A stretch of 39,370 nt of DNA from Lachnospiraceae bacterium (GTDB taxonomy: Bacteria > Bacillota > Clostridia > Lachnospirales > Lachnospiraceae), in contig JAGCXZ010000166.1 in NCBI GenBank assembly GCA_017961065.1, forward strand, positions 1-39,370, read 5' to 3'. Of the stretch, positions 6,314 to 39,370 are shown piece after piece. The notes beneath the pieces were generated by a model. The model was not told the origin of the DNA. It made no database searches and saw only the letters and a list, made by a program, of their open reading frames with translations. The translations under genes were made by a program, and so were the position numbers. How positions within the stretch are numbered: position 1 is the first letter of the stretch; every line of letters begins with the position of its first letter.

Positions 6314-6326
6314 GTTCCCCTTACTC

Positions 6327-8939: not shown

Positions 8940-9096
8940 GTCGGTCTCTCCTCTCGACTTACCTGTCTTTTGCAACGGATCACGGAGATCCGTAACGGAT
9001 TTCCGCGCACATTGCATCATTTTATTATAACATAGAAACGCAACGGGCACTATGATATGTTATAATAGGTTCATCTATGTAACAGGGGAGAAGTTT

Positions 9097-10230: not shown

Positions 10231-10264
10231 AGCAAAGGCGGCATTTGCCGCCTTTGCTTTTTTC
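10231..10264. terminator. Bidirectional intrinsic terminator between convergent genes
   Basis: AGCAAAGGCGGC-ATTT-GCCGCCTTTGCT perfect hairpin, followed by TTTTTT and preceded by A-rich sequence. Confidence 0.8.
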
Positions 10265-10267
10265 TGT

Positions 10268-11914: not shown

Positions 11915-11915
11915 C

Positions 11916-13736: not shown

Positions 13737-13817
13737 GACCTTCTCCTTGCTTATGCGCAGGCTCGATGCGCGCAACGCGCGCATCGTCTGCCTGCTTACC
13801 ACATGTTTTGTTACTGA

Positions 13818-15266: not shown

Positions 15267-15322
15267 TTTTTTACCCTCCTGATTTGTTGAATGATTTTAG
15301 AGTTGCTTTAACTTCTGATCCG

Positions 15323-15370
15323 ATTATAAAAAAAAACAGTTTTGCACAAAATACGACAAAACTGTTTTTC
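15323..15370 (-). terminator. Intrinsic terminator of the two-component operon, abutting a TATAAT -10 for the ABC operon
   Basis: Minus-sense AAAACAGTTTTG-12nt-CAAAACTGTTTT followed by a long T run. TATAAT (plus-strand attata at 15323..15328) follows immediately. Confidence 0.75.
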
Positions 15371-15402
15371 GTTTTAAAATTCTGCTAATTGGTCCGAAAC
15401 GT

Positions 15403-16167
15403 CTATGAACGGTCCTGGTACTCCGACGGATTGACGCCCGTGACTTTCTTGAAGATCGTTGAGAAATAGGCGATATCACGGTACCCGACCAGTTCCGCGA
15501 CCTCATAAACTTTATGCTTCCTGCTCTTGAGCAGCTTCATGGCCGTGCGCATCCTATATCTTGTGATATACGCGTTCACCGTATAGTCGGTTTCCTTCTT
15601 AAAGATATGGCTCAAGTGACTTTCACTGATATCGATCGCTTCCGCGATGCTGCGGATGCTGATGTCCGGATCCGACAGATGTTCGCCGATGTAGTCAAGC
15701 GCGAGTGACACCAGTTTGGATTTGTCGCCCTTCTGCAATGCCGCATGGGACAGGACATCTTCCTCATGTCTCTCGTCTCCCGCCTGCTGTTTTTTCATCA
15801 ACTGGTTCCTGACGTCACAGATCGCCTGCTCCAGATCGCCGTCATCGTAGGGCTTCAGCAGGTAATCCGCCGCACTGTACCTGACCGCCTGCTGCGCGTA
15901 GGAAAAGTCGTTATAAGCCGACAGAAAGATCACATGGGTCTGATCCCCCTGCTCGCGAAGCGTCTTCAGCATCCGGATCCCGTCCATTTTAGGCATCCGG
16001 ATGTCGCTGATCACGATATCCGGGTGGTATTTGGCAATGGCGGCAAGCCCCTCTTCGCCGTTGGTCGCCTCACCGACCACCTCGCAGTCAAGCGCTGCCC
16101 AGTCGGTTTCCAACACGATTCCGTTGCGCACAACGTTCTCATCATCGATCACCAGAATTTTCAGCAT
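15403..16167 (-). CDS. Response regulator with AraC-type HTH output (YesN-like)
   Basis: Receiver domain MLKILVIDDE...DIVISDIRMPKMDG. C-terminal AraC HTH (SIAEAIDISESHLSHIFKKETD..., GYRDIAYFSTIFKKVTGVNPSEY). Confidence 0.9.
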   Translation of the reverse strand: MLKILVIDDENVVRNGIVLETDWAALDCEVVGEATNGEEGLAAIAKYHPDIVISDIRMPKMDGIRMLKTLREQGDQTHVIFLSAYNDFSYAQQAVRYSAADYLLKPYDDGDLEQAICDVRNQLMKKQQAGDERHEEDVLSHAALQKGDKSKLVSLALDYIGEHLSDPDISIRSIAEAIDISESHLSHIFKKETDYTVNAYITRYRMRTAMKLLKSRKHKVYEVAELVGYRDIAYFSTIFKKVTGVNPSEYQDRS

Positions 16168-17887: not shown

Positions 17888-18930
17888 TCATCCTTCCGTT
17901 TTGTCTGTCCCATGTAAGAATCCCAGGCTTGCAGGATCTCTTCTCTGTGCGTATTGGAATATGCGATGTCATAGCGCATCTCATCCGCGATCTCGGAGGA
18001 ACTGAAATCCGTACGGACGCTTCGCCGGTACAGCTGATCCTCCAGCAGATGCTGCACATCGTCACTTACGATGAATTCCATGAATTTTTCGGCATTCTCA
18101 CGGTGCGCCGCTCCCTTTATGATCGCCCCGCCGTCCGGAACCGCACAGGTCGCCTGCCGCGGATAGATCATCTCTATATCCGCGCCCGCCGCCTTCTTTT
18201 TCAGAGCGGTTTCCTCAAGCGTGATGCCGATCATTTTTTTACCGCTTGCCACGTCTTCCACGATCGTGTTGGATCCGTCCGACAGATCGCCGGCGAGGTT
18301 TTTGGTAAAAGCGGCGACCGCTTCTTCCGTTGTTTTTTCACGGTTCAGTCTCTGGACCAGAATAGACAGTGCCGTATAGGCGCTTCCGCTTTTTTCCGGA
18401 TCGGCAAATGCGATGTTCCCTTCCCACTGATACTCCAGAAGCTGCTGCCATGTCCTGGGCGCGCCTGATGGCAGGACCAGTTTCGTATTATAAACAAACA
18501 CCGTCGGGAGTTTGGAAAAAACTGTATAGGCGTGATCGGGGGACGCATAGGCAGGATCCAGTTTTTCATCCTGTGCGGTCACGTAAGGTTCAAAGTAAGC
18601 CTCGTATGCCTGCAGACTGTCCACACCGCCGCCAAACATGATGTCCGCGCCGCTCTGTCCGTTTTCGGACGCGATCTGCTGCAGCATCTCATTTGTCCCG
18701 CCGGCCACAACGTCAACCCAGATGCCGCTTCTTTCTTCAAACTCGCGGATGATGGGTTTATAGATCTCTTCCTTGTGCGCCGTGTAGACGACCAGCCTGT
18801 TCTCCGCCGCGGGAGTTTCCTCTCCGCTCTCGTTCTGCGCGCACGCGCTCAATAAAACCAACAGGCCTGCAAAGAGCAGCCCTGTCAGTCCGATTTTGCG
18901 TCTATTCTGTTTCTGCCATCGTGTGATCAT
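17884..18930 (-). CDS. Extracellular solute-binding lipoprotein (FbpA/AfuA-like fold), probable co-sensor of the kinase
   Basis: Lipobox LLSAC; RLVVYTAHKEEIYKPIIREFEERSGIWVDVVAGGTNEML. 4-nt start/stop overlaps with XdhC upstream and the kinase downstream. Confidence 0.8.
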   Translation of the reverse strand: MITRWQKQNRRKIGLTGLLFAGLLVLLSACAQNESGEETPAAENRLVVYTAHKEEIYKPIIREFEERSGIWVDVVAGGTNEMLQQIASENGQSGADIMFGGGVDSLQAYEAYFEPYVTAQDEKLDPAYASPDHAYTVFSKLPTVFVYNTKLVLPSGAPRTWQQLLEYQWEGNIAFADPEKSGSAYTALSILVQRLNREKTTEEAVAAFTKNLAGDLSDGSNTIVEDVASGKKMIGITLEETALKKKAAGADIEMIYPRQATCAVPDGGAIIKGAAHRENAEKFMEFIVSDDVQHLLEDQLYRRSVRTDFSSSEIADEMRYDIAYSNTHREEILQAWDSYMGQTKRKDE

Positions 18931-19952
18931 CTGTTATCTTCTTTTTTCGCGCGCACCAGGATCAGCTGCGCAGCGATCGAAACAGCGATCTCTGCCGGTG
19001 TTTCCGAACGGATATCAAGCCCGATCGGTGCTGTGATACGCGCGATATCTTTCTCCGTATATCCATCCTCTGTCAGCCGCTTCTGCGTTGCAGAGATCTT
19101 GCTCCTGCTGCCGATCACGCCGATATAGCAGGCCGGTGTGCGGAGCATCTCATAAAGGGCGCGGTAATCGTTCTGATGTCCCCGCGTCATGATGCAGACA
19201 TAATCATCTTCTGTGATCCGGGGTATCAGTTCTGCGATCTTATCAACCGGCAGACATATTGTCTCTGCAAGAGATCCGAACAGGACCGGATCCGCAAAGT
19301 CTTCCCTGTCCTCAACGACAACGCAGGAACAATCACACCGGGTAAGCACCGGAACCAGCTGCTGCGCCACATGACCGCCGCCGAATATATAGACGCGGCC
19401 TCCTCGGATCAGATTTTCAATGTAGTATTTCCTGCCCTCATATTCCGTTTTGACCGGCTTGTTCCCCGCAATGTTGTACACTTCTTCCGGGAAACGGCTT
19501 CCGAATGTCTCTCCGGTATCACAACGGATCCCGATCGCGGCATCTGCAGAAGATGTCATTTCCATGATCAGCCGGCAGGGCTTTCTCTGTTCGTACAACG
19601 CATCAAGCGCTTCCGTCAGTTCCGTAACCACTCTGTCGCCCGCGCTGATGTAGCGAAAGAACACGTCTACGTTTCCGCCGCAGATCATACCGATATCCGC
19701 GACATCGTTTCGCGAGAGCATGAAATGCTGCTCCGTATTTCTCTGTCCTCGGATCGCTTCCTGCGCGATACGGATACTCTCATGCTCAACCGCACCGCCG
19801 CCGATCGTTCCGGCGATCCTGCCGCCGGCACCGACAAGCATTCTGGCGCCGCTTCCTCTGGGTGCTGATCCCGCATCGGCAACGATCGTGACAAGAGCGG
19901 TATCTTCCCCCGCTTTTATTTTTTCTCTTAACTGATCAAATAGTTCACGCAT
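18927..19952 (-). CDS. XdhC/CoxI family accessory protein
   Basis: N-terminal XdhC_CoxI-like ALVTIVADAGSAPRGSGARMLV...GTIGGG. C-terminal Rossmann-like VYIFGGGHVAQQLVPVL ... IMTRGHQNDY ... IGVIGSRSK ... APIGLDI. Confidence 0.85.
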   Translation of the reverse strand: MRELFDQLREKIKAGEDTALVTIVADAGSAPRGSGARMLVGAGGRIAGTIGGGAVEHESIRIAQEAIRGQRNTEQHFMLSRNDVADIGMICGGNVDVFFRYISAGDRVVTELTEALDALYEQRKPCRLIMEMTSSADAAIGIRCDTGETFGSRFPEEVYNIAGNKPVKTEYEGRKYYIENLIRGGRVYIFGGGHVAQQLVPVLTRCDCSCVVVEDREDFADPVLFGSLAETICLPVDKIAELIPRITEDDYVCIMTRGHQNDYRALYEMLRTPACYIGVIGSRSKISATQKRLTEDGYTEKDIARITAPIGLDIRSETPAEIAVSIAAQLILVRAKKEDNR

Positions 19953-20347
19953 TATATCATTCCTCTCAGGAAGGAATCCACATCCGACTGGGACATGCCG
20001 ACCTTGAAATTGTTGGACAGGATCTGCTCAGCCAGAGCGGATGCATCCTCTTCCGAAACCGGTTCGGCTGCAGCCGGTTCCGCAGGCTGTGATTTTCCGG
20101 GCTCATAGGAATAGACCTTGTCTTCCGCATTTCGTTCGGGATGATCCGGATCGATCCTTCGCTGCTTCATGAGGTCATATGTGCCGTTTTTGATGATGGT
20201 CTCTCTTCCAAGACGAGACAGGATCTGTAAACGTTCTTGCTCTTCTTTGCTTTTTCCCACTTTAACCATCCTTTCCTTGTTCCCCTGTTCTTTCATAATA
20301 TCACATTTTTCGCAAAAAATACCGATTTGTGCGACAAATTGTTTCAT
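19952..20347 (-). CDS. Hypothetical protein, translationally coupled to XdhC (start codon uncertain: 20347, 20296 or 20269)
   Basis: The ORF ends in TAATG, overlapping the XdhC start by 1 nt. I recognise no family. The central part is Pro/Ala/Glu-rich. Confidence 0.45.
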   Translation of the reverse strand: MKQFVAQIGIFCEKCDIMKEQGNKERMVKVGKSKEEQERLQILSRLGRETIIKNGTYDLMKQRRIDPDHPERNAEDKVYSYEPGKSQPAEPAAAEPVSEEDASALAEQILSNNFKVGMSQSDVDSFLRGMI

Positions 20348-21643: not shown

Positions 21644-21709
21644 TGGTGATCCCACCTTGTTTTCTTTATGGAAAATAAGCGCAATTTCAGAATCAGGAAA
21701 GGACAGATC

Positions 21710-22123
21710 ATGAACGAACGATCCAAATACAAAACAAAACAGCGTGAGATCCTGATGGATTATCTGATGTCCAAACAGGGCGTACATGTCACGGCCGGAG
21801 ATATCTGTGAGCACTTTAAGGCACAGGGCTCTTCCATCGGCCAGTCAACCGTGTACCGTCAACTGGAAAGACTCGTGGATGAGGGGATCATCAACAAATA
21901 TATCATTGATGTCGGCAGTCCCGCATGTTTTGAATATGTATCATCAGACAGTCATGAGGATGCGGAGGTCTGCTTCCACTGCAAATGCGAGAAGTGCGGT
22001 AAACTGATCCACCTCCATTGCGATGAGCTTGAAGACATCCAGCTCCATCTGTTTGATGCACACCGGTTTAAAATGGATCCGATCCGGACCGTATTTTACG
22101 GCTGCTGCGATCAATGTATCTGA
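21710..22123 (+). CDS. Fur-family metalloregulator, probably Zur from its context
   Basis: Start MNERSKYKTKQREIL at 21710 after AGGAAAGGA. Winged helix (STVYRQLERLVDEGII). Two CxxC pairs (CFHCKCEKCG, CCDQC). It lies directly upstream of a ZnuABC-type operon. Confidence 0.8.
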   Translation: MNERSKYKTKQREILMDYLMSKQGVHVTAGDICEHFKAQGSSIGQSTVYRQLERLVDEGIINKYIIDVGSPACFEYVSSDSHEDAEVCFHCKCEKCGKLIHLHCDELEDIQLHLFDAHRFKMDPIRTVFYGCCDQCI

Positions 22124-22147
22124 TCTGGGAACGAAGAGTATACAACC

Positions 22148-23149
22148 ATGAAAAACATTAAAAGAAATATTGCCATTATGATCATTGCCGCTCTTTTGTC
22201 CGGCCTTCTCACAGCCTGCGGTGCAGCATCCCCCGGCGCGAAGGAAGCCGGAGCCGGGGAGGAAAGCGGGATTAAGATCGTAACAACCATTTTCCCCATA
22301 TATGACTGGGTCAGGAGTGTTCTTGGAGAGGAACAGGCTGACCTGACCATGTTACTGAACGACGGTGTCGATCTGCACAGTTATCAGCCTACGGCTGACG
22401 ACATCATGAAAATCTCCACCTGCGATCTGTTCATTTATGTGGGCGGCGAATCTGACGAATGGATGGACGATGCCCTGCAGGAAGCCACCAATAAAGATAT
22501 GGTCGTTCTCAATCTTCTGCAACTTCTCGGCGACTCCGTCAAGGAGGAGGAAGTAGTGGAAGGCATGCAGGCCGAAGAAGAGGAAGAAGGCGAAGGAGAA
22601 GAGGAAGAGACCGAATACGACGAGCATGTCTGGCTATCGGTTCGCAACGCTTCTTTACTCTCGCAACACATTTCCGAAGCGCTGCAAAAGATCGATCCGG
22701 ATAAAGCTTCCGTGTATCAGAGTAATGCGGATGCCTATATCGAAAAGCTGAAAGCGCTGGACGAAAAATATACAGCGGAAGTTAATGCCTCCGCTGTAAA
22801 GACCCTGCTTTTCGGTGACCGGTTCCCGTTCCGCTATCTGACGGATGATTACGGACTCTCATACTATGCAGCCTTTGTCGGATGTTCTGCGGAAACGGAA
22901 GCAAGCTTTGAAACCGTGACGTTCCTTGCGCAAAAGGTCGACGAGCTGTCCTTACATGCTGTCATGACCATCGAAGGATCCGATCACCGGATCGCCGAAA
23001 CGATCATCAACAATACAGCCACCAAAGACCAGAAGATCCTGACGCTTGACTCCATGCAGTCCTGTACGCAGAACGATGTGGACTCCGGCGCTACCTATCT
23101 TTCGATCATGGAAAACAATCTTGCAGTCCTGCAGGAAGCACTGAAATAG
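22148..23149 (+). CDS. Metal (Zn/Mn-type, cluster A-I) ABC substrate-binding lipoprotein
   Basis: Lipobox LLTACG; IVTTIFPIYDWV, DLHSYQPT and EYDEHVWLS metal-ligand regions. The acidic loop EEEEEGEGEEEETEYDEH takes the place of the usual His-rich loop. Confidence 0.88.
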   Translation: MKNIKRNIAIMIIAALLSGLLTACGAASPGAKEAGAGEESGIKIVTTIFPIYDWVRSVLGEEQADLTMLLNDGVDLHSYQPTADDIMKISTCDLFIYVGGESDEWMDDALQEATNKDMVVLNLLQLLGDSVKEEEVVEGMQAEEEEEGEGEEEETEYDEHVWLSVRNASLLSQHISEALQKIDPDKASVYQSNADAYIEKLKALDEKYTAEVNASAVKTLLFGDRFPFRYLTDDYGLSYYAAFVGCSAETEASFETVTFLAQKVDELSLHAVMTIEGSDHRIAETIINNTATKDQKILTLDSMQSCTQNDVDSGATYLSIMENNLAVLQEALK

Positions 23150-23158
23150 GAGAAAACC

Positions 23159-23869
23159 ATGGCTTTACTTACCGTAACGGATCTGTCAGCCGGGTACGAT
23201 TCCCACGCTGTCGTGAAAGACTTGAATTTTACCGTAAATACCGGGGACTATCTTTGCGTAGTCGGCGAAAACGGTTCCGGAAAAACCACACTGATGAAAA
23301 CACTGCTGCATCTTCAGGATCCCGTAAGCGGAAAGATCCTGATCGGTGACGGGCTGAACCAGAATGAGATCGGCTATCTGCCGCAGCAGAGTGATGTGCA
23401 GAAGGACTTCCCCGCATCCGTTTCGGAGATCGTTCTCTCCGGATGCCAGGCCCGTTGCGGACTGCGGCCTTTTTACAACAAAAAAGAGAAAAAACTGGCC
23501 AAAGAAAACATGGAACGCATGGGGATCACTTCCCTTGCAAACAAAAGCTACCGTGAATTATCGGGCGGCCAGCAGCAGCGCGTCTTGCTGGCAAGAGCTC
23601 TTTGCGCCACGAGAAAACTGTTACTGCTGGATGAGCCTGTTGCAGGTCTTGATCCGGTCGTAACGGGAGAAATGTATGACTTGATCGCATCCTTAAACCG
23701 GGACGGTGTTTCGATCATAATGATCTCGCACGATGTATCCGCCGCGGTCCGCTACGGAAGCCATATCCTGCATATCGGCGATTCCGCGTTCTACGGAACG
23801 AAGGATGCTTATCTGAACAGCAGCGAAGGAAAGGCTTTCCTTCTGCAGCAGAAAGGACAGGTTGGATAG
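23159..23869 (+). CDS. Metal ABC transporter ATP-binding protein (ZnuC-like)
   Basis: Walker A GENGSGKTT, signature LSGGQQQRV, Walker B LLLLDEP, H-loop ISHD. Confidence 0.9.
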   Translation: MALLTVTDLSAGYDSHAVVKDLNFTVNTGDYLCVVGENGSGKTTLMKTLLHLQDPVSGKILIGDGLNQNEIGYLPQQSDVQKDFPASVSEIVLSGCQARCGLRPFYNKKEKKLAKENMERMGITSLANKSYRELSGGQQQRVLLARALCATRKLLLLDEPVAGLDPVVTGEMYDLIASLNRDGVSIIMISHDVSAAVRYGSHILHIGDSAFYGTKDAYLNSSEGKAFLLQQKGQVG

Positions 23870-24712
23870 ATGTTTGAAAAAATCGCTTTTTATCTGGAAT
23901 ATCCCTTTGTCAGATATGCGTTGATCGTCGGCATACTGATCGCACTGTGCTCCTCGCTCCTGGGCGTGACACTCGTGCTGAAGCGCTTTTCCTTCATCGG
24001 AGACGGGCTGTCGCATGTTGCCTTCGGTGCGATCGCGATCGCGTCCGTTCTGAAACTGACCAACAACATGTTTCTGGTCCTGCCTGTCACGATCATCAGC
24101 GCCATTCTTCTGCTCAGGACCGGGCAGAATGCAAAGATCAAGGGGGACGCCGCCATTGCGATGATCTCGGTCGGCGCACTGGCTTTCGGTTACCTGCTCA
24201 TGAATATCTTCTCGACTTCCTCAAACCTGTCCGGAGACGTCTGCAGTACTTTATTCGGTTCCACGTCCATCCTGACACTTACCGAAAAGGAAGTCTGGCT
24301 GAGTGCCGTGCTCTCCTTTGTTGTGATCGTGATCTTTGTATTGTTCTATAACAAGATCTTTGCCGTAACGTTTGACGAGAACTTTGCCAAAGCGATCGGA
24401 ACCGCCACGAACGCCTACAACCTTTTGATCGCCGTGATCATTGCTGTGATCATCGTTCTGGCCATGAACCTTGTCGGTTCCCTGCTCATATCGGCGCTTG
24501 TGATCTTCCCGGCCTTATCCGCAATGCGGCTGTTCAACAGCTTCCGCTCCGTGACGATCTGTTCTGCGTTGCTTTCCGTCACCTGCGCCTTCCTCGGGAT
24601 CATGATATCCATCCTGGCGGGAACGCCTGTCGGATCGACCATTGTCGCCGTGGATGTAGCCGGTTTCGCATTCTGCTGTCTGGGTGGTTTTGTCAGAACA
24701 AGGCTTGGTTGA
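23870..24712 (+). CDS. Metal ABC transporter permease (ZnuB-like, ABC-3 family)
   Basis: 280 aa, 8-9 hydrophobic helices, start overlapping the ATPase stop (TAGATG). Typical ABC-3 pattern (FIGDGLSHVAFGA...). Confidence 0.9.
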   Translation: MFEKIAFYLEYPFVRYALIVGILIALCSSLLGVTLVLKRFSFIGDGLSHVAFGAIAIASVLKLTNNMFLVLPVTIISAILLLRTGQNAKIKGDAAIAMISVGALAFGYLLMNIFSTSSNLSGDVCSTLFGSTSILTLTEKEVWLSAVLSFVVIVIFVLFYNKIFAVTFDENFAKAIGTATNAYNLLIAVIIAVIIVLAMNLVGSLLISALVIFPALSAMRLFNSFRSVTICSALLSVTCAFLGIMISILAGTPVGSTIVAVDVAGFAFCCLGGFVRTRLG

Positions 24713-29877: not shown

Positions 29878-30285
29878 TTATTCTCTTGCCAAAAACTCTG
29901 CCGGAGCAAACGCAAGCACTTCGCTTTTTTTGAAATCTTTCACATTTCTCGTGATGATATGATCTGCATGGATTCGCCTGGCAGTAACGGCCTGTACTGC
30001 ATCCTCAAAATCATCCCACTTCAGTTCTGCAGCTGAATTGATATCGGATGCGGTCAGATCTGCAAGCGAAAAGATCAAGGATAGTTTTTTTATCACTTCC
30101 TCTGTCTTCTCAGGGCTCAGTTCTTTTCGCATGACATAAACCAAATTTGCAAATGTTAGAGCAGAAACATATCCTTCCGCCCGCTCTGTTTCACACATTT
30201 TCCAAATCTTTGCCGAATCTTCGTAATGCGGTTCTCTTTTCTGGAGGACATCGAGAAGAATGTTTCCGTCAATCAGTAATTTCAT
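29878..30285 (-). CDS. PIN-domain toxin (VapC-like) of a type II toxin-antitoxin pair
   Basis: MKLLIDGNILLDVL (Asp6), FEDAVQAV, IITRNVKDF. Overlaps the upstream antitoxin gene by 17 nt. Confidence 0.88.
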   Translation of the reverse strand: MKLLIDGNILLDVLQKREPHYEDSAKIWKMCETERAEGYVSALTFANLVYVMRKELSPEKTEEVIKKLSLIFSLADLTASDINSAAELKWDDFEDAVQAVTARRIHADHIITRNVKDFKKSEVLAFAPAEFLARE

Positions 30286-31975: not shown

Positions 31976-32410
31976 TTATCTATATCCTTCCTTAACCAGA
32001 TCGGCATACCATTGATCAGCCTCTTCATAGCATCTCTTCAATGTATCTATTCTTACCACAAGATGAAGATCATAACGTCCGGTTGCTTCCCAGCGTGTTA
32101 TTATGTCTTTATTCTTATCAATATAAGATGGCATATTAATTGCAATGCCTAGAGAGTTTGCATAAACAAGCAAATCTTTAATGGAATGCTTATACATACG
32201 TGCGTTGTCGATCTTCTTTCCGGAAGCATATATCTGAATCTTGACCATCTTTTCGCACGCTTGCTGCAGATGATAAGCACCCTGACCCTTGATTGACTTT
32301 GACATTCTGGCAGAGGCCTTTTCGGCCTGCTCGATGGAGTACTTTGACAAGAGCAGATCAGCCTTTACTTGCGTCATTGAAAGAATATCATTTACATTAG
32401 TGACGGGCAT
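31976..32410 (-). CDS. HEPN-domain protein (partner of the minimal nucleotidyltransferase)
   Basis: YHLQQACEKMVKIQIY...YKHSIKDLL is a typical HEPN helix pattern. Overlaps the upstream MNT gene by 14 nt. Confidence 0.78.
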   Translation of the reverse strand: MPVTNVNDILSMTQVKADLLLSKYSIEQAEKASARMSKSIKGQGAYHLQQACEKMVKIQIYASGKKIDNARMYKHSIKDLLVYANSLGIAINMPSYIDKNKDIITRWEATGRYDLHLVVRIDTLKRCYEEADQWYADLVKEGYR

Positions 32411-32765
32411 AAATCAGTTCTCCATTTTCTATATCATCCATAATCAATCCTCTATATTGTTTACCGGAAACAAAGTATAAAAGATCATATGATTGTCCGG
32501 AATCGTCAAAAGAATATATCTGGCTGGTAAACCTGTCATATTTCTTTGATCTTAATGCCCTGTACTCTGTCTGATTGCCAAAGATCGCAAGGTCAATATC
32601 CGACTCCTCTTTACAGCTGTCTCTCACACTAGAGCCAAAAAGAACTATCCTGTCAATAAGATCACATTGACTGGCAGCATCAACAATATTTCTTATGTAT
32701 TTTTTCTTGATATCGGCAACTCTGATATTTCTGTCACCGATTTTCATTTTAACAACTTTACACAT
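32397..32765 (-). CDS. Minimal nucleotidyltransferase (MNT) domain protein
   Basis: Polymerase-beta-type NTase motif IVLFGSSVRDSCKEESDIDLAIFG. Confidence 0.85.
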   Translation of the reverse strand: MCKVVKMKIGDRNIRVADIKKKYIRNIVDAASQCDLIDRIVLFGSSVRDSCKEESDIDLAIFGNQTEYRALRSKKYDRFTSQIYSFDDSGQSYDLLYFVSGKQYRGLIMDDIENGELIYARH

Positions 32766-32807: not shown

Positions 32808-32827
32808 TTACTATTTGCAAATAGTAA
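32808..32827. promoter_or_regulatory. Perfect 20-bp palindrome, candidate operator of the MNT/HEPN operon
   Basis: TTACTATTTGCAAATAGTAA lies ~45 nt upstream of the MNT start, adjacent to AT-rich -10-like hexamers. Confidence 0.5.
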
Positions 32828-32918
32828 ACGCAAGCGTTATCACGCAACAGTAATGCCGGCCCCACCTTATGGCGAAGCCGGCACATCATATGAAAAGAGA
32901 GTATTGAATGATTTTTCT

Positions 32919-34232
32919 TTATACCGCTTCCTGCTCCGCAAACAGTCTCTCCATCTGCTCCTCGCTCAATTCCTCATGATATTCCTTTCTCTCCATAAAT
33001 CGCTTCTCATGAAGCTTATCCATATATTTCTTATGTTCCATCTGCCTTTTGTGCAAAGCGTCCACAGCTGCCTTTTCATCCGCTTTTCTCTTCCTTGCCC
33101 TTGCTTCCTGCCGCCGTCTTTCTTCCTGTCTCCTAGCGGCATTGCTTTGGCTTCGGTCGTCTGACGTTCTAATTTCCATAGTTGTATCATCACCGCTGAC
33201 CTTTATACCCTGACCATTTTGTTTCATGGACAGGTCTACATGCTGTATTGCACCTGCTCCTCCGCTTTCACGAAGAAAAACTCCCGTGGATCTGATCACT
33301 CCATCCCTGAAACCATCCGCTCCGCCAAGCGAAAACTCCGTCTGCTGTTCTCCAAGATATATGGCACCGATATCCGCTTCCTTCAGATCCATGAGTACAT
33401 CCTTTCCATTCTCATCCTTGCACCACACCTTAAGTTTTGAGAAGATCTCGTCGTTCTCATCGATCCATCCGTTACCGTCACTGTCATATTCGCGAAGCTC
33501 GCCAAATCCGTCACCGCTCTTTGTTCCAAACAGTTCGTTGCCGTCATCTATTTTTCCGTTCCCGTCCTTATCCAAAGCAAGAAATCCCGACCCCTTGCCA
33601 AGCATGGATATTTCATCCTCGATCCCGTCAGCATCAAGGTCAAACTTAAAAGTCTGATCCCGCACGTCCGCTGTGTTTGATCCTATGTTGACAATAAGCG
33701 GATCAAACAGCGCATCGGCCATAGTCGGAACACTCACGTTCATATATTCCATGTAGCTCCTGCTCATCAGGATATTCACGTTAAAATCGATCGTCCTTCC
33801 ATCCTCGGTACATGCTCTTCCGCAAGCATGAAATCCCATCTCTTCGACCTCTGAGTAAGTGACCATGCTCGAAGAATATCCGCCAATACCTGCTCCACCC
33901 ATCATTCCAAAAGATGCAAATCTCTTAAACATCGCGGCCAAGGTGTTGTTTTGAAAAGCCGATGCACTTGCTCCTGTTCCATACAAGCTTCCGGAAGTTA
34001 TTTTTCCAAGCCCCTTGAAATATCCGATATCATCCATATTGTACGCACCCATCCCATTGTTATTCTTACCGGATTGATACGTGTCCCTTGTAAGGGCAGT
34101 ATCTTTATTGGTTCCGTACCTATTGATCATTCCCATAAAACTGCTTTGATATCCGGCCAATCTGTTAGTTATTCCGGTCTGCGTATAGTTTCTTCCCGAT
34201 AACATGTTTACTGTGCTGTCTGCTATTCTCAT
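32919..34232 (-). CDS. 437-aa protein with EF-hand-like DxDxDG calcium-binding repeats and a highly charged coiled-coil tail; no signal peptide
   Basis: GGAGG RBS. FDLDADGIEDEIS, LDKDGNGKIDDGNELFG and YDSDGNGWIDENDEIF repeats. C-terminus RRQEERRRQEARARKRKADEKA. Gly/Ser/Asn-rich N-terminus. Confidence 0.75.
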   Translation of the reverse strand: MRIADSTVNMLSGRNYTQTGITNRLAGYQSSFMGMINRYGTNKDTALTRDTYQSGKNNNGMGAYNMDDIGYFKGLGKITSGSLYGTGASASAFQNNTLAAMFKRFASFGMMGGAGIGGYSSSMVTYSEVEEMGFHACGRACTEDGRTIDFNVNILMSRSYMEYMNVSVPTMADALFDPLIVNIGSNTADVRDQTFKFDLDADGIEDEISMLGKGSGFLALDKDGNGKIDDGNELFGTKSGDGFGELREYDSDGNGWIDENDEIFSKLKVWCKDENGKDVLMDLKEADIGAIYLGEQQTEFSLGGADGFRDGVIRSTGVFLRESGGAGAIQHVDLSMKQNGQGIKVSGDDTTMEIRTSDDRSQSNAARRQEERRRQEARARKRKADEKAAVDALHKRQMEHKKYMDKLHEKRFMERKEYHEELSEEQMERLFAEQEAV

Positions 34233-34264
34233 GTTTCTACCTCCAGTTATTTGTTGTTTTCAAT

Positions 34265-34301
34265 AAAAAACTGCGTCCAAAGTTCAATCCTTTGAACGCA
34301 G
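34265..34301 (-). terminator. Strong intrinsic terminator between the 729-aa and 437-aa genes
   Basis: Minus-sense CTGCGTTCAAAG-GATTGAA-CTTTGGACGCAG (12 bp, one G-U pair) followed by TTTTTT. Only ~32 nt (34233..34264) separate the T run from the 437-aa start codon. Confidence 0.8.
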
Positions 34302-34363
34302 CAACCTTCCTTAGCTTTTATTATGATTTTTAACAGTATTATGTCTCAGATCTCTGTGAGGTT

Positions 34364-36553
34364 CTAGATTATGCTCATCTCCATGAGTTTTTCTATAAAA
34401 CGCTCATAGAAGGCTCTCTCTTTCTCCCTCGCCGCAAGTACTTTCGAACCCCTTGTTGTATCAGGCTCGAGAGGATGGTCAAGAGCATAAATAGCGTCCT
34501 GCGCCGCCTGGATGGCCGAGTTTACCGTACTCCCCAGAACATCATCAGGATCATATCCGTTATACTGGCGGATAAATCGCTGTATCATAAACTGTGGGAT
34601 ATGATCGAGTGTTCCGGAAGCCGATAATCCCTGTCCGTCCATGCCAATTTCATCTGCAGCATCCAACCAGGCATTTTTTACGTTCTCCGAAGCATTCTTT
34701 CCAATACCCAGAAATGCCTGTTCTCTCATTGCACGGACCTTATCCCTGGAATCTGTGGATGTTTTATCTCCTGTACTGTTTATGCCCAGAGCTCTCTGGT
34801 TTGCTTCTATTTGGGCATTCCAGTTATCCCACATTTCCTGCTCCGTAAATACCCTGCCGATAAAATGAGTGTTATTGATATATTCTGCAAAAGGCTCGGT
34901 CAAGAGATCTCCCAGATTCTTGCCCTCCTGTAACCCCTTCTCAACATTTATCTTTCCGTTATCGGTGGAATCGAAATATGCACGGAATCCGTCAATATCA
35001 AAATCATCCTTCATGAAATCCTTCCAGAACTTCTCCTGTGGAGCGAACGTTAGATTCTGATCCTTGGAAAAACTATTTAGAAACTTCTGAACCTTTTCAT
35101 AACTGTCCGGGGAATCATAAGTTAGACTCCATAAATCCCTCTGCGATATCTTTCCCCCTTCATCTTTTATTTCCTTACAGGAAATCCCCTTATCAGTATA
35201 GGCTGTGATATATCTGGTATTCACCGGAACAATCTCACCGGTATCAGGATTCGTGTACTGATTGTGTTTTGAAACAATTGTTTCGGATATCGGATCGGTT
35301 GTGTTGTCAGAATCGACATATCCGTTTTTCAAAGCGCTGATCTTTTCCCTGGTCTCAACATCATTGAGATCCGCAAACAAGAGCGAGAATGCTTCTTCAG
35401 AGAATCCGCTTCCCCTCATTGCCCTGTCGAAAAAAGAGTTTATGGCGTCAAATATCTTATTCGCAAGACTTGCAAGAGAAGGCGCCGAATCACTGTACTC
35501 TTCAGCATACTGGCCTAACAAGCTGACACGATCTCCTCTGTCAAATATCCCGTCGAAATAGCTTGTATCCGTAAAATAGCTACTTGCTATCAGATCAGCA
35601 GTTTCATCCGTCTGCCTGATATACATGCACATTGCCACAAACTCAGGGTAATCCATATCCTTCGGATCCAGCTCATACGGATCAAATACTCTTTCGAACG
35701 CCTCGCCGTTTTCATCAATGCCTGTTATCGTATATGTTTTATCCTTGCCGTCAGAATTGATGATTATATTGAATGACTGCTCCGTTTCCCTGTAAGAATA
35801 GATCACTTCTCCATTGGAATTCTGCTGTACATAAGACTCCTTGGTCTTGATATTGGCTGTAATGAACCTGGTGTATGCAGCCGGATCTCCATATCCTTTG
35901 CTGGCAATCGGAATACATGTGGCATCCATGTCACTTGACACCTCACTTTTCCTAGATACTTCTGTGATCATGTTCGTGCCATTATCAAGCCTTGTTTCTG
36001 CCCAACGTTCAAGTCCGGCAACAATGTTCTCACAGTTAAGTCCTTGATCATATGCCTGCGGAATGCCTAAAAATGTCTCTTTTGCATTTTGCAGTATCGC
36101 GGTCCAGTCTCTGTTCTTTGTCCATGCCATATCAGGATCGGAAAGATTACTGCAAAATCCATTATATTCCGCCTGTGCCCCATACGCTGTCATTTTTCCG
36201 AACGATTTAATGCCGGTATTATCGATAAGCCCCTTATCATCCATATAACTCATCAGTGCGAACATCTCCACTTTTGTAGCATTATGCGGATCAACATCAT
36301 TTACTCTAACCTCATAATCTCCGACTTTGATGATAGGATCTTCTTCTGTTGATGAGTCCGCATATTGGGCAATATACCCTATGTTACCAATCGTCATAAC
36401 TCCGATATTTTTACCTTGGTCAGATGAAGCGGTCCGTGAAGTAGCACTCCCCATAAATTCTTGCCCGATAGAGTCCTCTCCACGATTTGATTTCGAGCCA
36501 AAGCTTCCATACTGGTACGTTTGATTAAAACTTGTTTGTACTGCAAATGACAT
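34364..36553 (-). CDS. 729-aa protein of unknown function; no signal peptide, TM helix or recognisable catalytic motif
   Basis: AGGAGG plus an 8-nt spacer before ATG at 36553 (MSFAVQTSFNQ...). The upstream in-frame extension of the 772-aa ORF has no RBS and crosses the leader hairpin. Confidence 0.75.
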   Translation of the reverse strand: MSFAVQTSFNQTYQYGSFGSKSNRGEDSIGQEFMGSATSRTASSDQGKNIGVMTIGNIGYIAQYADSSTEEDPIIKVGDYEVRVNDVDPHNATKVEMFALMSYMDDKGLIDNTGIKSFGKMTAYGAQAEYNGFCSNLSDPDMAWTKNRDWTAILQNAKETFLGIPQAYDQGLNCENIVAGLERWAETRLDNGTNMITEVSRKSEVSSDMDATCIPIASKGYGDPAAYTRFITANIKTKESYVQQNSNGEVIYSYRETEQSFNIIINSDGKDKTYTITGIDENGEAFERVFDPYELDPKDMDYPEFVAMCMYIRQTDETADLIASSYFTDTSYFDGIFDRGDRVSLLGQYAEEYSDSAPSLASLANKIFDAINSFFDRAMRGSGFSEEAFSLLFADLNDVETREKISALKNGYVDSDNTTDPISETIVSKHNQYTNPDTGEIVPVNTRYITAYTDKGISCKEIKDEGGKISQRDLWSLTYDSPDSYEKVQKFLNSFSKDQNLTFAPQEKFWKDFMKDDFDIDGFRAYFDSTDNGKINVEKGLQEGKNLGDLLTEPFAEYINNTHFIGRVFTEQEMWDNWNAQIEANQRALGINSTGDKTSTDSRDKVRAMREQAFLGIGKNASENVKNAWLDAADEIGMDGQGLSASGTLDHIPQFMIQRFIRQYNGYDPDDVLGSTVNSAIQAAQDAIYALDHPLEPDTTRGSKVLAAREKERAFYERFIEKLMEMSII

Positions 36554-36573
36554 GTTTGAGCCCTCCTTTTGAG

Positions 36574-36631
36574 TAATAAAACAGCGCCTGATTTCAGTTT
36601 CACTCCATTGAAATCCGACGCTGTCCATAGC
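36574..36631 (-). promoter_or_regulatory. Conserved leader hairpin plus U-tract (attenuator-like), copy 1
   Basis: Minus-sense GCTATGGA-CAGCGTCGGATTTCA-ATGGAGTGAAAC-TGAAATCAGGCGCTG-TTTTATT. 15-bp stem with one mismatch and one G-U. About 75% identical to 38738..38794. Confidence 0.55.
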
Positions 36632-36680
36632 ATTTATTTTTCGGTTGTATGATTTGGTTATCGGTTCATTCCTAAGATTC

Positions 36681-36733
36681 ATTATACGTTCAGCATAAAC
36701 AGACCATAAAATATCATAAAACGACTATAAGAT
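36681..36733 (-). promoter_or_regulatory. LytTR-type paired direct repeats plus TATAAT: promoter of the 729-aa gene
   Basis: Minus-sense ATCTTATAGTCG-TTTTATGAT-ATTTTATGGTCT, then 14 nt, then TATAAT (plus-strand attata at 36681..36686). Repeat starts are 21 bp apart. The distal repeat overlaps the kinase stop codon. Confidence 0.6.
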
Positions 36734-38005
36734 GGTCACGGCAGTAAACTCTTTTTCATCACAGGAGATTGCAAAACTGCCTTCATACTTATCGATCACG
36801 CCTTGAACATTTGACAACCCGATCCCTTGTCCGTCCCTTGAACCGTTCTGCACCTGGTTATCTGTAATATCCACCTTTTGAACGACCGGATTCCTTACAG
36901 TAAAGATTATCCCGGAATCCTTCTCAACAAGTTTCACCTGTATAGATGCAGATCTCCCGCACGTCTTCACTTTTTTACATTCATGTATTGCGTTTTCAAG
37001 AAGATTTCCCATAACTATGACAATATCATCATCCGAAAGACGAATATTGCACATATCACTGATGGTAAAGACCATTCCTATATCTTCACTTTTGGCAATC
37101 CGATAAAACTGATTTAGAACAGCATTTACAACAGGATGTCCGGTGTTGACTTCCGACATTTCCACAGCGATGCTTTTCGTCAATTGTTCCGTGAACTCTA
37201 TAGCCGCCTCCACGTCTCCGTTTTTTAACAATTCCTCAACAGTAGCCAGTTGTTTTTTATAATCATGAAGTTTCCGGCCCTGCCGTTCATAAAGAGACTG
37301 CATATCGTGAAAAGCCCGAAGCTGATTCTGTTTGCTCTCTATCTGTACCTCAGATAAACGCAATTTTTCATCTTTAATCAACGAATCTTGCAATAGGAAC
37401 ATGGAAAAAATGTTTACCGCAAGCAACACAGCCGAAACTATTCCTTGAAAAATCCCAACGCCAGCCGGTGACACAAAAAACATATAAAAAAACATTCCCA
37501 CAATCATTGTAACAAGCGGTACCCATATGTACGATCTCAGCATCACATGTTCTTTTTTCAAGCATTCCTTAACTCGATGCAGCTTTTTTCGAAGAACAAA
37601 CTCTATACAAAATGCAATTAGGCAGGACAAACACGCCATTAGATTTAAAAAAGTCGGATTATTGCTTCGGCTAAGCTGAAGCGGCACACATACCAGAATC
37701 TGTGTAAGGATTTGTAAAAGTACTGCCGCACCGGAAAAGAATACGCTCATGATCCAATCAGATCTGTAACAGATCCTGACAAAAAGCATATGTATTGCAA
37801 TATATGTTATCAGTTTTATCGAATAATATTCATTTGGTATCTTTTCAAACAGCGCAGAATTTCCGCCTACAGAAAGCGCAAGCAGAATAAACGAAATCAG
37901 TTTTTGAATCTTCCCCCATTTAAAAAAAATAAAGGAATCATAATAATAGATGCACAGTGCTGTTTCAAATACACAAGTGCTTATAAATACCAACCATGCA
38001 GTCAT
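36725..38005 (-). CDS. AgrC/ComD-like (HPK10) membrane histidine kinase with a GHKL ATPase domain
   Basis: About six N-terminal TM helices, a coiled linker, then GNLLENAIHE ... DGQGIGLSNV (HATPase_c_5-like). 4-nt overlap with the LytTR regulator gene. Confidence 0.85.
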   Translation of the reverse strand: MTAWLVFISTCVFETALCIYYYDSFIFFKWGKIQKLISFILLALSVGGNSALFEKIPNEYYSIKLITYIAIHMLFVRICYRSDWIMSVFFSGAAVLLQILTQILVCVPLQLSRSNNPTFLNLMACLSCLIAFCIEFVLRKKLHRVKECLKKEHVMLRSYIWVPLVTMIVGMFFYMFFVSPAGVGIFQGIVSAVLLAVNIFSMFLLQDSLIKDEKLRLSEVQIESKQNQLRAFHDMQSLYERQGRKLHDYKKQLATVEELLKNGDVEAAIEFTEQLTKSIAVEMSEVNTGHPVVNAVLNQFYRIAKSEDIGMVFTISDMCNIRLSDDDIVIVMGNLLENAIHECKKVKTCGRSASIQVKLVEKDSGIIFTVRNPVVQKVDITDNQVQNGSRDGQGIGLSNVQGVIDKYEGSFAISCDEKEFTAVTIL

Positions 38006-38712
38006 AGTTTTTTCCCCTCATACAGTGTATACTCCTGTTTAACCTGCTTATATCTGGCTTTTGGTACCGATATCTGTCTATCATTATCAAGCGTCAGGAT
38101 ATAACTGTTGATATTTCTGATATGCTCCATATTCACAAGAAAGCTTTTATGTGTCCTCAAAAAGCCCTGCGCCTTGAGCCGTTCCTCAAGTTCTTCCAGT
38201 TTTTCATAGATCTGGTATGTCCGATCCTTCAGTTGAATCAAACACTTATGCCCTTCTGTTTCAATCAAGATGATCTCTGATGTCTTCAACCGAATATTTC
38301 CTTCAACGCAGTCAAAGCAAATCGTCTTGGATCTTCTTTGCAGTTCATTGCAGATATCATCCATACATTCTGAAAATGTACGATAAAGGTCATCCTTGAT
38401 CAGAAAGCGACTCGCTCGCACCTTGTATCCGTCCAATGCAAAGCTCATAAACGATGTCACAAGAATGATCGGAACATCTTCAAGTCTCTCCCGGATTCTT
38501 TTGGCTACTGTCAGACCATCCATCGCGTCCATATTGATATCCAAAAAAATGATATCCACAGTTTTCCCTTTGCGGATGGCATCAAGCATTTCGACACCTG
38601 ATCGATATCCTGATACCGCAAATTCCATATGATTTTTCCTAGCATATTCGTCAATAAGCGTTTTCAGCCTTGCAATGTCCTCTAAATCATCGTCACAAAT
38701 AAAAACCTTCAT
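38002..38712 (-). CDS. LytTR-family response regulator (AgrA/ComE-like)
   Basis: Receiver MKVFICDDD...IIFLDINMDAMDG. C-terminal LytTR domain (IILIETEGHKCLIQL...FLRTHKSFLVNMEHI). Confidence 0.9.
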   Translation of the reverse strand: MKVFICDDDLEDIARLKTLIDEYARKNHMEFAVSGYRSGVEMLDAIRKGKTVDIIFLDINMDAMDGLTVAKRIRERLEDVPIILVTSFMSFALDGYKVRASRFLIKDDLYRTFSECMDDICNELQRRSKTICFDCVEGNIRLKTSEIILIETEGHKCLIQLKDRTYQIYEKLEELEERLKAQGFLRTHKSFLVNMEHIRNINSYILTLDNDRQISVPKARYKQVKQEYTLYEGKKL

Positions 38713-38737
38713 AATCTCCCCGCTTTCATTTTTCTGG

Positions 38738-38794
38738 AAAAATAAACAGCGCCGGTCTCAATGCTCAATCCATTGATCTGGCGCCATCCATAGC
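38738..38794 (-). promoter_or_regulatory. Conserved leader hairpin plus U-tract (attenuator-like), copy 2
   Basis: Minus-sense GCTATGGATGGCGCCAGATCAATGGATTGAGCATTGAGACCGGCGCTGTTTATTTTT. Stems GGCGC/GCGCC and TCAATG/CATTGA. It sits between the repeats and the regulator RBS. Confidence 0.5.
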
Positions 38795-38843
38795 TTCTGA
38801 ACCATATATAATCTATTTATTCTATCGTCTCAAGATTTCCTGA

Positions 38844-38898
38844 AATAAACCCCTATTGCGTGAATCGACTATAATATGACATAAAACGACCATAATAT
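38844..38898 (-). promoter_or_regulatory. LytTR-type paired direct repeats upstream of the LytTR/kinase operon (autoregulation)
   Basis: Minus-sense ATATTATGGTCG-TTTTATGTC-ATATTATAGTCG, starts 21 bp apart (plus-strand 38866..38877 and 38887..38898). A weak -10 candidate TTTATT lies 16 nt downstream. Confidence 0.55.
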
Positions 38899-38979
38899 AC
38901 GAATCGGGCCACAAAAACGTGACCCGAAAGGATGTATATTGAATGGTAGTACCATACAATACCTGTTAAGATTTCTCTT

Positions 38980-39366
38980 CTACGAAATCACGGCGTGCTG
39001 CCGTCTGTATGTGTCATTATCTTTCTGAACGAGTTCCATTTCTACCTGACGGAGTTCAACCGCTATTTCTTTCTTTTTTTGCTCATTTGCCATGTTCATT
39101 TCCTGCTCCAAACGAGCTTTCTTTTCTTTCAGTTCCCTTATCTCACGATCAACCCGGTCCGTGTTCATTGTAGTCGATTCGCTCTTCTTAGAATCCTCAG
39201 AAACCTTTTTCCCTGATTCAGAAAGTGACGCAACATATGATTTTGCTGAATTCTGCATTTCCTCAGCAAAGCCCTCAGGGATCTTCTCCGGTTCATAATA
39301 CCTGATGTCGCCTCTTCCCATCTCCAGTTTGATATCCTGAAGCCTATTTACGGCCTTGGCAACCAT
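38980..39366 (-). CDS. Charged coiled-coil protein (FlxA-like?); the true start may lie beyond the right window edge
   Basis: ORF rich in E/K/Q heptad-like sequence (REIRELKEKKARLEQEMNMANEQKKKEIAVELRQVEMEL). The first Met is only 4 nt from the window end. Confidence 0.45.
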   Translation of the reverse strand: MVAKAVNRLQDIKLEMGRGDIRYYEPEKIPEGFAEEMQNSAKSYVASLSESGKKVSEDSKKSESTTMNTDRVDREIRELKEKKARLEQEMNMANEQKKKEIAVELRQVEMELVQKDNDTYRRQHAVIS

Positions 39367-39370
39367 CTCG

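Follow-up and report, generated by a model that had tools for sequence, protein, structure and literature searches.

The stretch of DNA considered here, hereafter the window, comprises positions 1 to 39,370 of contig JAGCXZ010000166.1 (assembly GCA_017961065.1), from a Lachnospiraceae bacterium. Towards one end of its 39,370 nucleotides (nt) lies an operon for an AgrA-like response regulator and an AgrC-like histidine kinase, followed on the same strand by genes for a protein of 729 amino acids (aa) and one of 437 aa. The regulator/kinase operon and the 729-aa gene are each preceded by LytTR-type paired direct repeats, a putative core promoter and a leader RNA, and we think it rather probable that a single composite control module is present here in two paralogous copies. 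The features concerned are the following.

38866..38898, minus strand: LytTR-type repeat pair 1, ATATTATGGTCG (38898..38887)-N9-ATATTATAGTCG (38877..38866), 21-bp period, 5' of the regulator/kinase operon
38822..38828, minus strand: ACGATAG, putative degenerate sigma-D-type -10 element, 37 nt downstream of the proximal repeat of pair 1; -35 position without TAAA
38743..38797, minus strand: leader RNA copy 1, a GCUAUGGAUGGC hairpin, a terminator-like hairpin with apical UCAAUGGAUUGA, and a U tract
38002..38712, minus strand: response regulator, 236 aa, receiver plus LytTR DNA-binding domain, AgrA-like architecture
36725..38005, minus strand: AgrC-like histidine kinase, 426 aa, GHKL domain (Pfam HATPase_c_5, 1.3e-17), 4-nt overlap with the regulator gene
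36701..36733, minus strand: LytTR-type repeat pair 2, ATCTTATAGTCG (36733..36722)-N9-ATTTTATGGTCT (36712..36701), 21-bp period, 5' of the 729-aa gene
36681..36686, minus strand: TATAAT, likelier the degenerate -35 (TAAT/ATAA) of a sigma-D-type promoter, 16 nt upstream of CCGATAA
36658..36664, minus strand: CCGATAA, putative sigma-D-type -10 element, 36 nt downstream of the proximal repeat of pair 2
36578..36634, minus strand: leader RNA copy 2, upstream of the 729-aa gene
34364..36553, minus strand: 729-aa DUF8329 (PF27009) protein, so named from the precomputed annotation of its homologues
34261..34318, minus strand: leader RNA copy 3, within the 131 nt that separate the 729-aa gene from the 437-aa gene
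32919..34232, minus strand: 437-aa protein with an FrpC-type self-processing module (SPM; PF26745, PDB 6sjw/6sjx)

A preliminary description of this DNA had placed 12-nt units 21 bp apart in both intergenic regions of the minus strand, and every coordinate was confirmed. The 12-mer ATNTTATRGTCK has four perfect matches in the 39 kb, which are exactly the four repeat units, and with up to three mismatches allowed in the paired pattern the window contains these two sites only, as against 0.2 expected. The likeness of the units reaches past the 12-mers to nearly the full 21-bp unit (GTCGTTTTATG / GTCTGTTTATG). The sites of LytTR regulators are imperfect direct repeats, each of about 9 bp with 12 (11-13) bp between them, that lie 4-11 bp upstream of the -35, and autoregulation is documented for these regulators (PMC6193735); both window sites fit this 9-12-9 plan, with its period of 21 bp, and the earlier assignment of the pairs to the LytTR architecture holds against it. 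When the two regions were aligned pairwise, the conserved parts were the repeats and a downstream block, GCTATGGA...TCAATGGA.TGA...GGCGCTGTTT, whose start GCTATGGA lies 69 and 71 nt past the proximal repeat, just as first described. The AATCTT element that was also thought to be shared did not survive: its distances to the repeats and to CGATA differ between the copies, MAFFT left it unaligned and it is absent from orthologous promoters, and since its position is not conserved we rejected it as an element of the module. The kinase stop codon TAG (36727..36725) falls inside the distal unit of pair 2 (36722-36733), so that the promoter region of the 729-aa gene begins within the end of the upstream operon.

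A genome scan for relatives returned 40 loci (numbered with an L below), nearly all of them from rumen or gut Lachnospiraceae and one from Lachnospiraceae bacterium NK4A179, which appears to be an isolate, its record bearing no metagenome-assembled genome (MAG) label. We aligned 89 distinct related promoters, anchored on the CGATA element; these are mutually related, and counts made on them are not counts of independent events. A strong direct repeat (at least 8/9 positions) at period 21 was present in 18 of the 89, as against 0-2 at the other periods from 15 to 27 and 0.75 in shuffles, and a looser cut-off of at least 7/9 positions gave 33 promoters at period 21 versus 1-10 at other periods. 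The proximal copy ends 26-41 nt upstream of CGATA. The repeat sequence differs by lineage (TAGTCG, ACAGTCG, ACCGTCT, AAGTGCGG) while period and position are kept, the box reading ACAGTCG.../AAAGTCG... at 21 bp in Pseudobutyrivibrio, ACAGTCC/ACCGTCT in the lineage that contains NK4A179 and AAGTGCAG/AAGTGCGG in other relatives. Period-21 repeats at the same position despite diverged sequences suggest that selection acts on the architecture, and the conservation of the motif pair in orthologous loci, which had been set beforehand as a test of the proposal, was found in this form. As in the window, where a box (38866..38898) stands upstream of the LytTR regulator's own operon, equivalent boxes precede the regulator genes of L001 and L016; L001 has the same box ahead of the regulator gene, a 201-aa gene and the DUF8329 gene alike, and in L012 the pair-1 site is present too and a third box precedes p249, a FliD_C-like gene just past the window end. 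The box before the regulator's own operon predicts positive feedback, and we propose pair 1 as the autoregulation site. We also noticed a 21-bp tandem repeat, CATCAAAAAACGACGGTTATA, in L048, L073 and L112, in which the box core is reversed and overlaps the -35 slot; it belongs to the region ~20-60 nt upstream of CCGATAT, ahead of a LytTR-only gene of 128 aa, and may serve for autorepression rather than activation.

The related promoters share a conserved (G)CCGATA(T/A), which lies past the repeats and ahead of the hairpin, and the core promoters of the window are probably of the sigma-D type. In relatives without repeats, 12 exact copies of TAAA-N16-GCCGATAT stand on the gene strand and a single one on the opposite strand, with 2.7 expected on both strands together. 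It agrees with the published sigma-D consensus, TAAA-N15-GCCGATAT (PMC5200910), and among the SigD promoters of C. difficile that of fliC carries ...CCGATAAt (PMC3865298). The repeats appear to replace the -35 element, since TAAA is found at that position in 0/18 of the strongly boxed promoters versus 27/71 of those without a strong repeat (p = 0.001). It could instead be supposed that the promoter activated through the repeats is an ordinary sigma-A one, with the TATAAT 14 nt past the proximal repeat of pair 2 as its -10, in which case CCGATA would merely be part of the 5' untranslated region (UTR). The TATAAT before the 729-aa gene is perfect and recurs in three orthologous promoters (L001 9133, L010 7727, L007 5006), and poor -35 elements are typical of promoters activated by LytTR regulators. 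No TATAAT-like hexamer, however, stands at the equivalent place before the regulator gene, where the -35 slot reads GGTTTA, or in the DUF8329 promoters of L006 and L008. Moreover, the repeats would end 14 bp from such a -10 and so cover the -35, whereas characterised LytTR repeats end 4-11 bp upstream of it; CCGATA lies at a fixed 16-17 nt from the hexamer and becomes a perfect sigma-D consensus in the box-less paralogues; and a sigma-70 promoter scan called nothing at the TATAAT region of the 729-aa gene. With these points weighed, we regard a sigma-A promoter as rather improbable. The hexamer is probably not the -10 for which it was first taken, and seems to occupy the -35 slot of a sigma-D-type promoter, a reading favoured because under it alone a -35 follows the repeats at about 10 bp, the placement seen in known LytTR promoters, on the provision that the 9-mer core is GTC(G/T)(T/G)TTT.

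The third component is the leader RNA, of which copies 1 and 2 follow the two promoters and copy 3 has neither a LytTR box nor CGATA upstream of it. A covariance model, R1, was built on a seed of 17 hand-registered copies that did not include window copies 1 and 2, and its search of the window gave exactly three matches: copy 1 (43.1 bits, E 1.5e-9; minimum free energy (MFE) -23.9 kcal/mol, z -2.8), copy 2 (44.7 bits, E 5.8e-10; MFE -21.4 kcal/mol, z -3.6) and copy 3 (71.8 bits, E 4.7e-17; MFE -20.9 kcal/mol, z -4.6), the last of which was also identified by a terminator scan, as an intrinsic terminator whose stem has 13 bp and is followed by a T tail. Over 36 sources (the window and 35 related loci) the model gave 58 matches, every one on the gene strand, and in a regular-expression survey the same element stood ahead of many cluster genes, again on the gene strand throughout. 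In the model-fitted alignment, compensatory changes occur at 14 of the 17 pairs, paired cells amount to 93.6% versus ~42% with the partners slid, and the covariation score is 0.53 versus at most 0.11. RNAalifold on a plain MAFFT alignment did not recover the long hairpin because its arm lengths vary, a difficulty that the hand-registered seed and the covariance model solved. The first helix, P1, is a 3-bp hairpin, GCU-AWGGAU-AGC, whose loops read A(A/U)GGA(U/C/A); the apex of the second, P2, is UCA-AWGGAN-UGA, another ANGGAN-type loop; and a T-rich tract (at least 4 T in the 8 positions past the stem) follows in 46 of 46 distinct copies. The sequence allows for two alternative pairings, of the proximal UGAAA/UUGAA repeat against the distal arm and of P1 against the base of P2 (copies 1 and 2). 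The element thus presents the stable GC-containing stem and U tract of a terminator or attenuator, between promoter and start codon, and also at least two GGA hairpin-loop motifs 10-60 nt apart, as in CsrA leaders and the TwoAYGGAY motif, although this last is a resemblance of sequence only. When the whole window was searched against Rfam at the gathering cutoff, and in three further local searches with permissive settings, only noise came up, with no match to TwoAYGGAY (RF01731) at E <= 10; the leader is an RNA element without an Rfam family. The hairpin noted in the preliminary description is therefore conserved as was claimed, and has now to be described as a distinct covarying leader RNA that also precedes the box-less 437-aa gene.

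An exact-pattern scan of metagenomes for the leader returned 104 stretches, and 89 of the 127 distinct metagenome copies had CGATA upstream within 45 nt (the leader lying 9-33 nt downstream of it); viral contigs gave 0 matches to the leader pattern. The genes after the metagenome leaders encode DUF8329 proteins and p404 relatives (28), LytTR proteins (13), the 201-aa family (10) and SPM proteins (5), besides DUF6033, DUF6240 and other unannotated families. These findings bear on the possibility that the hairpin is a generic intrinsic terminator of the preceding gene (the kinase gene, the 729-aa gene or an upstream operon) with no regulatory role, for which the GC-rich stem and U tract would suffice, and which agrees with the fact that copies 2 and 3 are the first terminator-like structures past the kinase and 729-aa stop codons. 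Copy 1, however, lies downstream of the boxes and CGATA, and the gene before it has a separate GC-rich hairpin (38926..38905), which lacks a following U tract and was not among the calls of the terminator scan. Generic terminators, moreover, do not combine covarying stems with conserved loops and 5' flanks (GCUAWGGA, UCAAWGGANUGA) as this element does, and the metagenome motif stands mostly 3' of the CGATA promoter element (89/127) and is restricted to the gene system of the cluster, so that a role as mere terminator seems to us quite improbable. In many relatives another conserved element of the 5' UTR stands past the leader and ahead of the DUF8329 start codon, ...ccgctcggacctttccgg..., with a hairpin GCGGCUC-UGACUGACAGAU-GAGCUGC before the Shine-Dalgarno (SD) sequence; it was seen at L001 9925-9995, L016 6490-6595 and L029 7800-7850 and is missing from the window copy.

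That the repeats are a by-product of the duplication of a promoter cassette or of a 21-bp tandem duplication in a mobile island, non-functional or bound by some other factor, is very improbable: nearly the whole 21-bp unit is repeated beyond the 9-mer, the cluster looks horizontally mobile and L007 has boxes without a nearby LytTR gene, but period-21 repeats keep their position in lineages whose repeat sequences have fully diverged, the boxed promoters have no -35 element, and LytTR proteins of three architectures are embedded in the same cluster.

The regulator matches Response_reg (1.6e-15) and LytTR (1.5e-22) in Pfam and has residues D7-D9, D58, T86 and K106, and the kinase has about six transmembrane segments in its first 205 aa by hydropathy and an HD-type H-box, RKLHDYKKQL (H247), ahead of its HATPase_c_5 domain. 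The original identification of an AgrA/AgrC-like pair is borne out by these assignments, although the regulator is not an AgrA equivalog, since it scores 61 bits against the NCBIfam AgrA cutoff of 400. Pfam searches of the window and of the upstream genes in L012 gave no match to agrB, agrD, any other pheromone gene or a peptide exporter, and the intergenic open reading frames (ORFs) of at least 20 aa overlap the boxes or the leader and are not conserved (SD sequences being judged by eye), so that the reported absence of these genes stands. The pair is not the self-contained orphan circuit that it had seemed, and is one of three interchangeable LytTR inputs in a larger mobile cluster: LytTR genes occur in the cluster in ~24 of the 40 genome loci, as a regulator with its kinase (the window), as an orphan regulator-like protein whose receiver is degenerate, with a charged protein of 201 aa encoded after it, or as a LytTR-only protein of 110-128 aa. 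As was expected, LytTR proteins co-occur with DUF8329/SPM genes in most loci having enough flank.

In its parts the system resembles the AgrA P2/P3, ComE, PlnC/D and BlpR systems, with which it shares a receiver-LytTR regulator, a polytopic HPK10-like kinase, and 21-bp imperfect direct repeats before a poor -35, one copy of them at the regulator's own operon; the box core A(C/T)AGT also resembles the AgrA box ACAGTTAAG. Unlike those systems, the window has no agrB/agrD, peptide gene, C39 exporter or membrane inhibitor gene, its core promoters look sigma-D-type rather than sigma-A-type, a conserved leader RNA follows every promoter, and sister lineages would drive the same regulon with an orphan degenerate-receiver regulator or a 110-aa LytTR-only protein. 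It differs from the LytTR Regulatory Systems (HdrRM/BrsRM; PMC6193735) in that the window regulator has a receiver and a kinase partner; LytTR-only relatives such as that of L013 adjoin DUF8329 directly, with no membrane protein between that could be an inhibitor.

As the preliminary description had proposed, the best-supported reading is that the regulator would autoactivate its own operon and drive the 729/437-aa genes. The module would consist, in order, of two LytTR-type repeats (21-bp period), a spacer of 36-37 bp, a sigma-D/FliA-type -10, (C)CGATA(A/G), without a proper -35, then ~27 nt, the leader RNA (GGA-loop hairpin, GGA-apex terminator-like hairpin, U tract), a Shine-Dalgarno sequence and the gene. 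The AgrC-like membrane kinase would sense a signal and phosphorylate the AgrA-like regulator, a dimer of which would occupy the repeats, centred near -55 and -76, stand in for the missing -35 and recruit RNA polymerase, probably as the sigma-D holoenzyme. This would produce positive feedback onto the regulator/kinase operon and induce as well the DUF8329-SPM operon and the FliD_C-like gene beyond the window. The leader would then act as a second checkpoint, by premature termination and/or through a GGA-recognising protein of the CsrA type, and copy 3 may tune read-through from the 729-aa to the 437-aa gene. Taken as a whole, a composite of LytTR repeats, sigma-D-type core and leader that drives its own sensor genes and an output operon is on balance what we expect. 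LytTR two-component systems are usually seen as peptide quorum-sensing switches on sigma-A promoters. Here the LytTR repeat architecture appears to have been grafted onto a flagellar-type sigma-D core that lacks a -35, which, if true, would be the first case of a LytTR activator acting at sigma-D promoters, and a membrane signal could in this way make genes of the late flagellar class conditional.

Several points weigh against this interpretation. The window's own two promoters are only partial sigma-D matches (CCGATAA, ACGATAG; no TAAA), and the use of TATAAT by sigma-A for the 729-aa gene is possible. The covariance alignment was fitted to its model. Because the related promoters and leaders descend from common ancestors, the counts are inflated, and those of promoters lack phylogenetic independence. 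L007 has boxes and yet no LytTR gene within 8 kb. The apical GGA is missing from some Pseudobutyrivibrio leaders, and the leader is tied to flagellin and fliS in one metagenomic locus (L141) only. There is no sigD, csrA, fliW or flagellar gene in the window or most loci, csrA, fliW and sigD being absent from every locus examined.

With respect to the output, the preliminary description had assigned no function to either large protein. This has to be revised for the 437-aa protein, since an FrpC-type self-processing module was found in it; the 729-aa protein can be named DUF8329 only. Neither has a signal peptide, and Pfam and NCBIfam profile searches of both gave no matches, the names coming from precomputed annotations. 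For the 729-aa protein there are 443 homologues, and all annotated ones carry PF27009. The longest ORF of the gene, from the ATG inside 'TATAATG', would encode 772 aa; the homologues begin at MSFAVQ and the leader RNA fills the extra stretch, so that the length of 729 aa first given is the right call. Its AlphaFold2 model has a mean predicted local distance difference test (pLDDT) of 56.8 and is confident at residues 423-560 only, with residues 1-72 at pLDDT ~21-32; Foldseek of the model against the PDB found nothing below E 0.01, a sequence search of the PDB gave no match for the 729-aa protein, p249, p320 or p316, and a literature search for DUF8329 found no papers. DUF8329 itself is modular: a domain at residues ~35-185 is N-terminal in the window protein (34364-36553), C-terminal in Pseudobutyrivibrio and other relatives (L016 6803-8299, L017 8001-9551, L023 8001-9116) and missing in many, an arrangement reminiscent of the way in which polymorphic secreted proteins shuffle their domains.

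The 437-aa protein matches the Neisseria FrpC module (PDB 6sjw/6sjx) over residues 196-304 (E 1e-6), and PF26745 is precomputed on all its listed homologues. There are more than 4,000 homologues, the best-scoring of which, all at least 79% identical, come from metagenome assemblies. Its sole Asp-Pro (D177-P178, within ALFDPLIVNIG) is the predicted scissile bond and is kept without exception by homologues of as little as 46% identity; the protein also has three Asp-rich Ca-binding motifs and a charged helical tail. The AlphaFold2 model (pLDDT 37.9, from a shallow alignment of homologues at least 79% identical) is unusable; the SPM is reported to be disordered without Ca2+. The likeness to the 'clip-and-link' SPM of FrpC and ApxIVA (PMC7078468) thus includes the sequence, the invariant Asp-Pro with PL(I/V)(V/I)N and the Asp-rich Ca2+ loops, whereas the host protein here is Gram-positive and has neither RTX repeats nor a type I secretion signal, and no type I secretion genes were found near the 437-aa gene. 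The protein would cleave itself at D177-P178 in millimolar Ca2+, i.e. outside the cell, and its N-terminal fragment would then be joined covalently to a lysine of a partner protein. The SPM has been described as exclusive to RTX toxins of Gram-negative bacteria, and this would, if true, be the first such module at work in a Gram-positive bacterium; the predicted calcium-triggered, self-cleaving and self-ligating module of this one product has close homologues by the thousand in rumen metagenomes. The SPM already serves as a protein-ligation tool (NeissLock).

The promoter type, the leader loops, the FliD_C-like member, locus L141 and the low-confidence N-terminal 72 residues of the 729-aa protein led us to two further hypotheses, that the products leave through the flagellar apparatus and that CsrA controls the leader. 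To late flagellar sigma-D/FliA (sigma-28) promoters the cluster is likened by its paralogues with TAAA-N16-GCCGATAT and by its FliD_C-like protein, and to the flagellar system at large by products without Sec signals, the very low AlphaFold2 confidence of residues 1-72 of the 729-aa protein and L141, where alone TAAA-N16-GCCGATAG and a leader are followed by DUF6240, flagellin and fliS. Judged by eye, most leader-downstream proteins start with a flagellin-like M-x-I-N/G-x and show no obvious N-terminal hydrophobic signal, the exception being a 2,439-aa product in L088 that starts with a signal-like segment. Unlike in the flagellar system, the products are not flagellins, no flagellin occurs among the proteins called downstream of metagenome leaders, and the window promoters are partial matches that would need an activator. 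FliD_C is carried across members of the p249 family, and its distant homologues (L150-L152) lie in ordinary chromosomal neighbourhoods, not in flagellar loci, behind leaders with a CsrA-consensus ACAAGGAUGU or a GGA-loop hairpin, the Roseburia one with TAAA-N16-GACGATAT. A tblastn search of all loci with B. subtilis CsrA, SigD and Hag gave no CsrA match and flagellin in L141 only, the SigD matches being sporulation sigmas in L128. On the strength of the sequences and models, export through the flagellar apparatus is a genuine possibility to which we would nevertheless not lean.

With the CsrA-FliW control of flagellin (B. subtilis hag, C. jejuni flaA) the cluster shares GGA in leader hairpin loops and a GGA-containing SD. 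The p320/p322 operons of relatives (L012 3532-3640; L001 6853-6953) have a perfect sigma-D-type promoter, a short GGA-loop hairpin and a GGA-containing SD, which is the layout of the CsrA-repressed flagellin (hag) leader. Unlike in that system, the main hairpin here is a terminator, and control of terminators by CsrA is not known in Firmicutes. The TwoAYGGAY RNA motif (RF01731), a proposed CsrA-binding small RNA of Clostridia (PMC4333381), also has two hairpins with A-Y/W-G-G-A-Y loops and occurs in gut Clostridia, but the present element is a leader in cis, has a U-tract terminator and belongs to a single gene system. Control of the leader by CsrA seems doubtful to us on this evidence, although its GGA loops make it a candidate for control of the CsrA type in Clostridia. 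The widest proposal, that of a mobile and hitherto undescribed export regulon of rumen and gut Lachnospiraceae (DUF8329, SPM, a short FliD_C-like protein, DUF6033, DUF6240 and others) with sigma-D-type promoters, gating by interchangeable LytTR activators and a leader read by a CsrA-like protein, exit of the Sec-less products through the flagellar type III apparatus and, outside, Ca2+-triggered Asp-Pro self-cleavage that would build them by covalent cross-links into a surface or extracellular structure, is unlikely to hold in all its parts.

The closest relative of the window region, L012, from a water-buffalo rumen MAG, is 95.8% identical over window positions 32808..39370 (L012 5184-11757) and continues the cluster past the window end, in the order relaxase, p249 (a 249-aa FliD_C-domain protein), p320, p316, regulator, kinase, DUF8329, SPM. 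The window itself ends within this series, at the following feature.

38980..39370, minus strand: p316, the 3' part of the gene for a 316-aa coiled-coil protein, cut by the window end; the last gene of the p320-p316 operon

By tblastn, p316 matches L012 4624-5574 with 100% identity over residues 188-316, and in L012 a perfect TAAA-N16-GCCGATAT promoter and a leader with a GGA-loop hairpin precede the p320-p316 operon. The chromosomal flanks (window 9073-20260 versus L012 14629-18001) are only 67-76% identical, and a MobA/VirD2 relaxase gene adjoins the cluster in L012; the higher identity of the cluster (95.8%) together with the relaxase suggests a recently exchanged mobile island. Directly downstream of the cluster in the window are genes for a PIN-domain protein and for an MNT-like nucleotidyltransferase that overlaps a 144-aa ORF (29878-30285, 31976-32410, 32397-32765, minus strand), which look like toxin-antitoxin modules. 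In L012 this stretch is missing or rearranged, and a Fic/DOC gene is there instead.

The remaining window is ordinary Lachnospiraceae chromosome, with no tRNA or tmRNA. It includes a second, unrelated two-component system of ordinary kind, an AraC-type regulator and a His_kinase/HAMP sensor beside solute-binding and ABC transport genes (15403-17887, 10268-18930, minus strand), as well as a Fur-ZnuABC zinc uptake operon (21668-24712) that looks equally ordinary. At 1688-6493 (minus strand) a 1601-aa protein with Big_2 immunoglobulin-like repeats and a weak match to the hyaluronate-lyase N-terminal domain is encoded, which is probably a surface protein.

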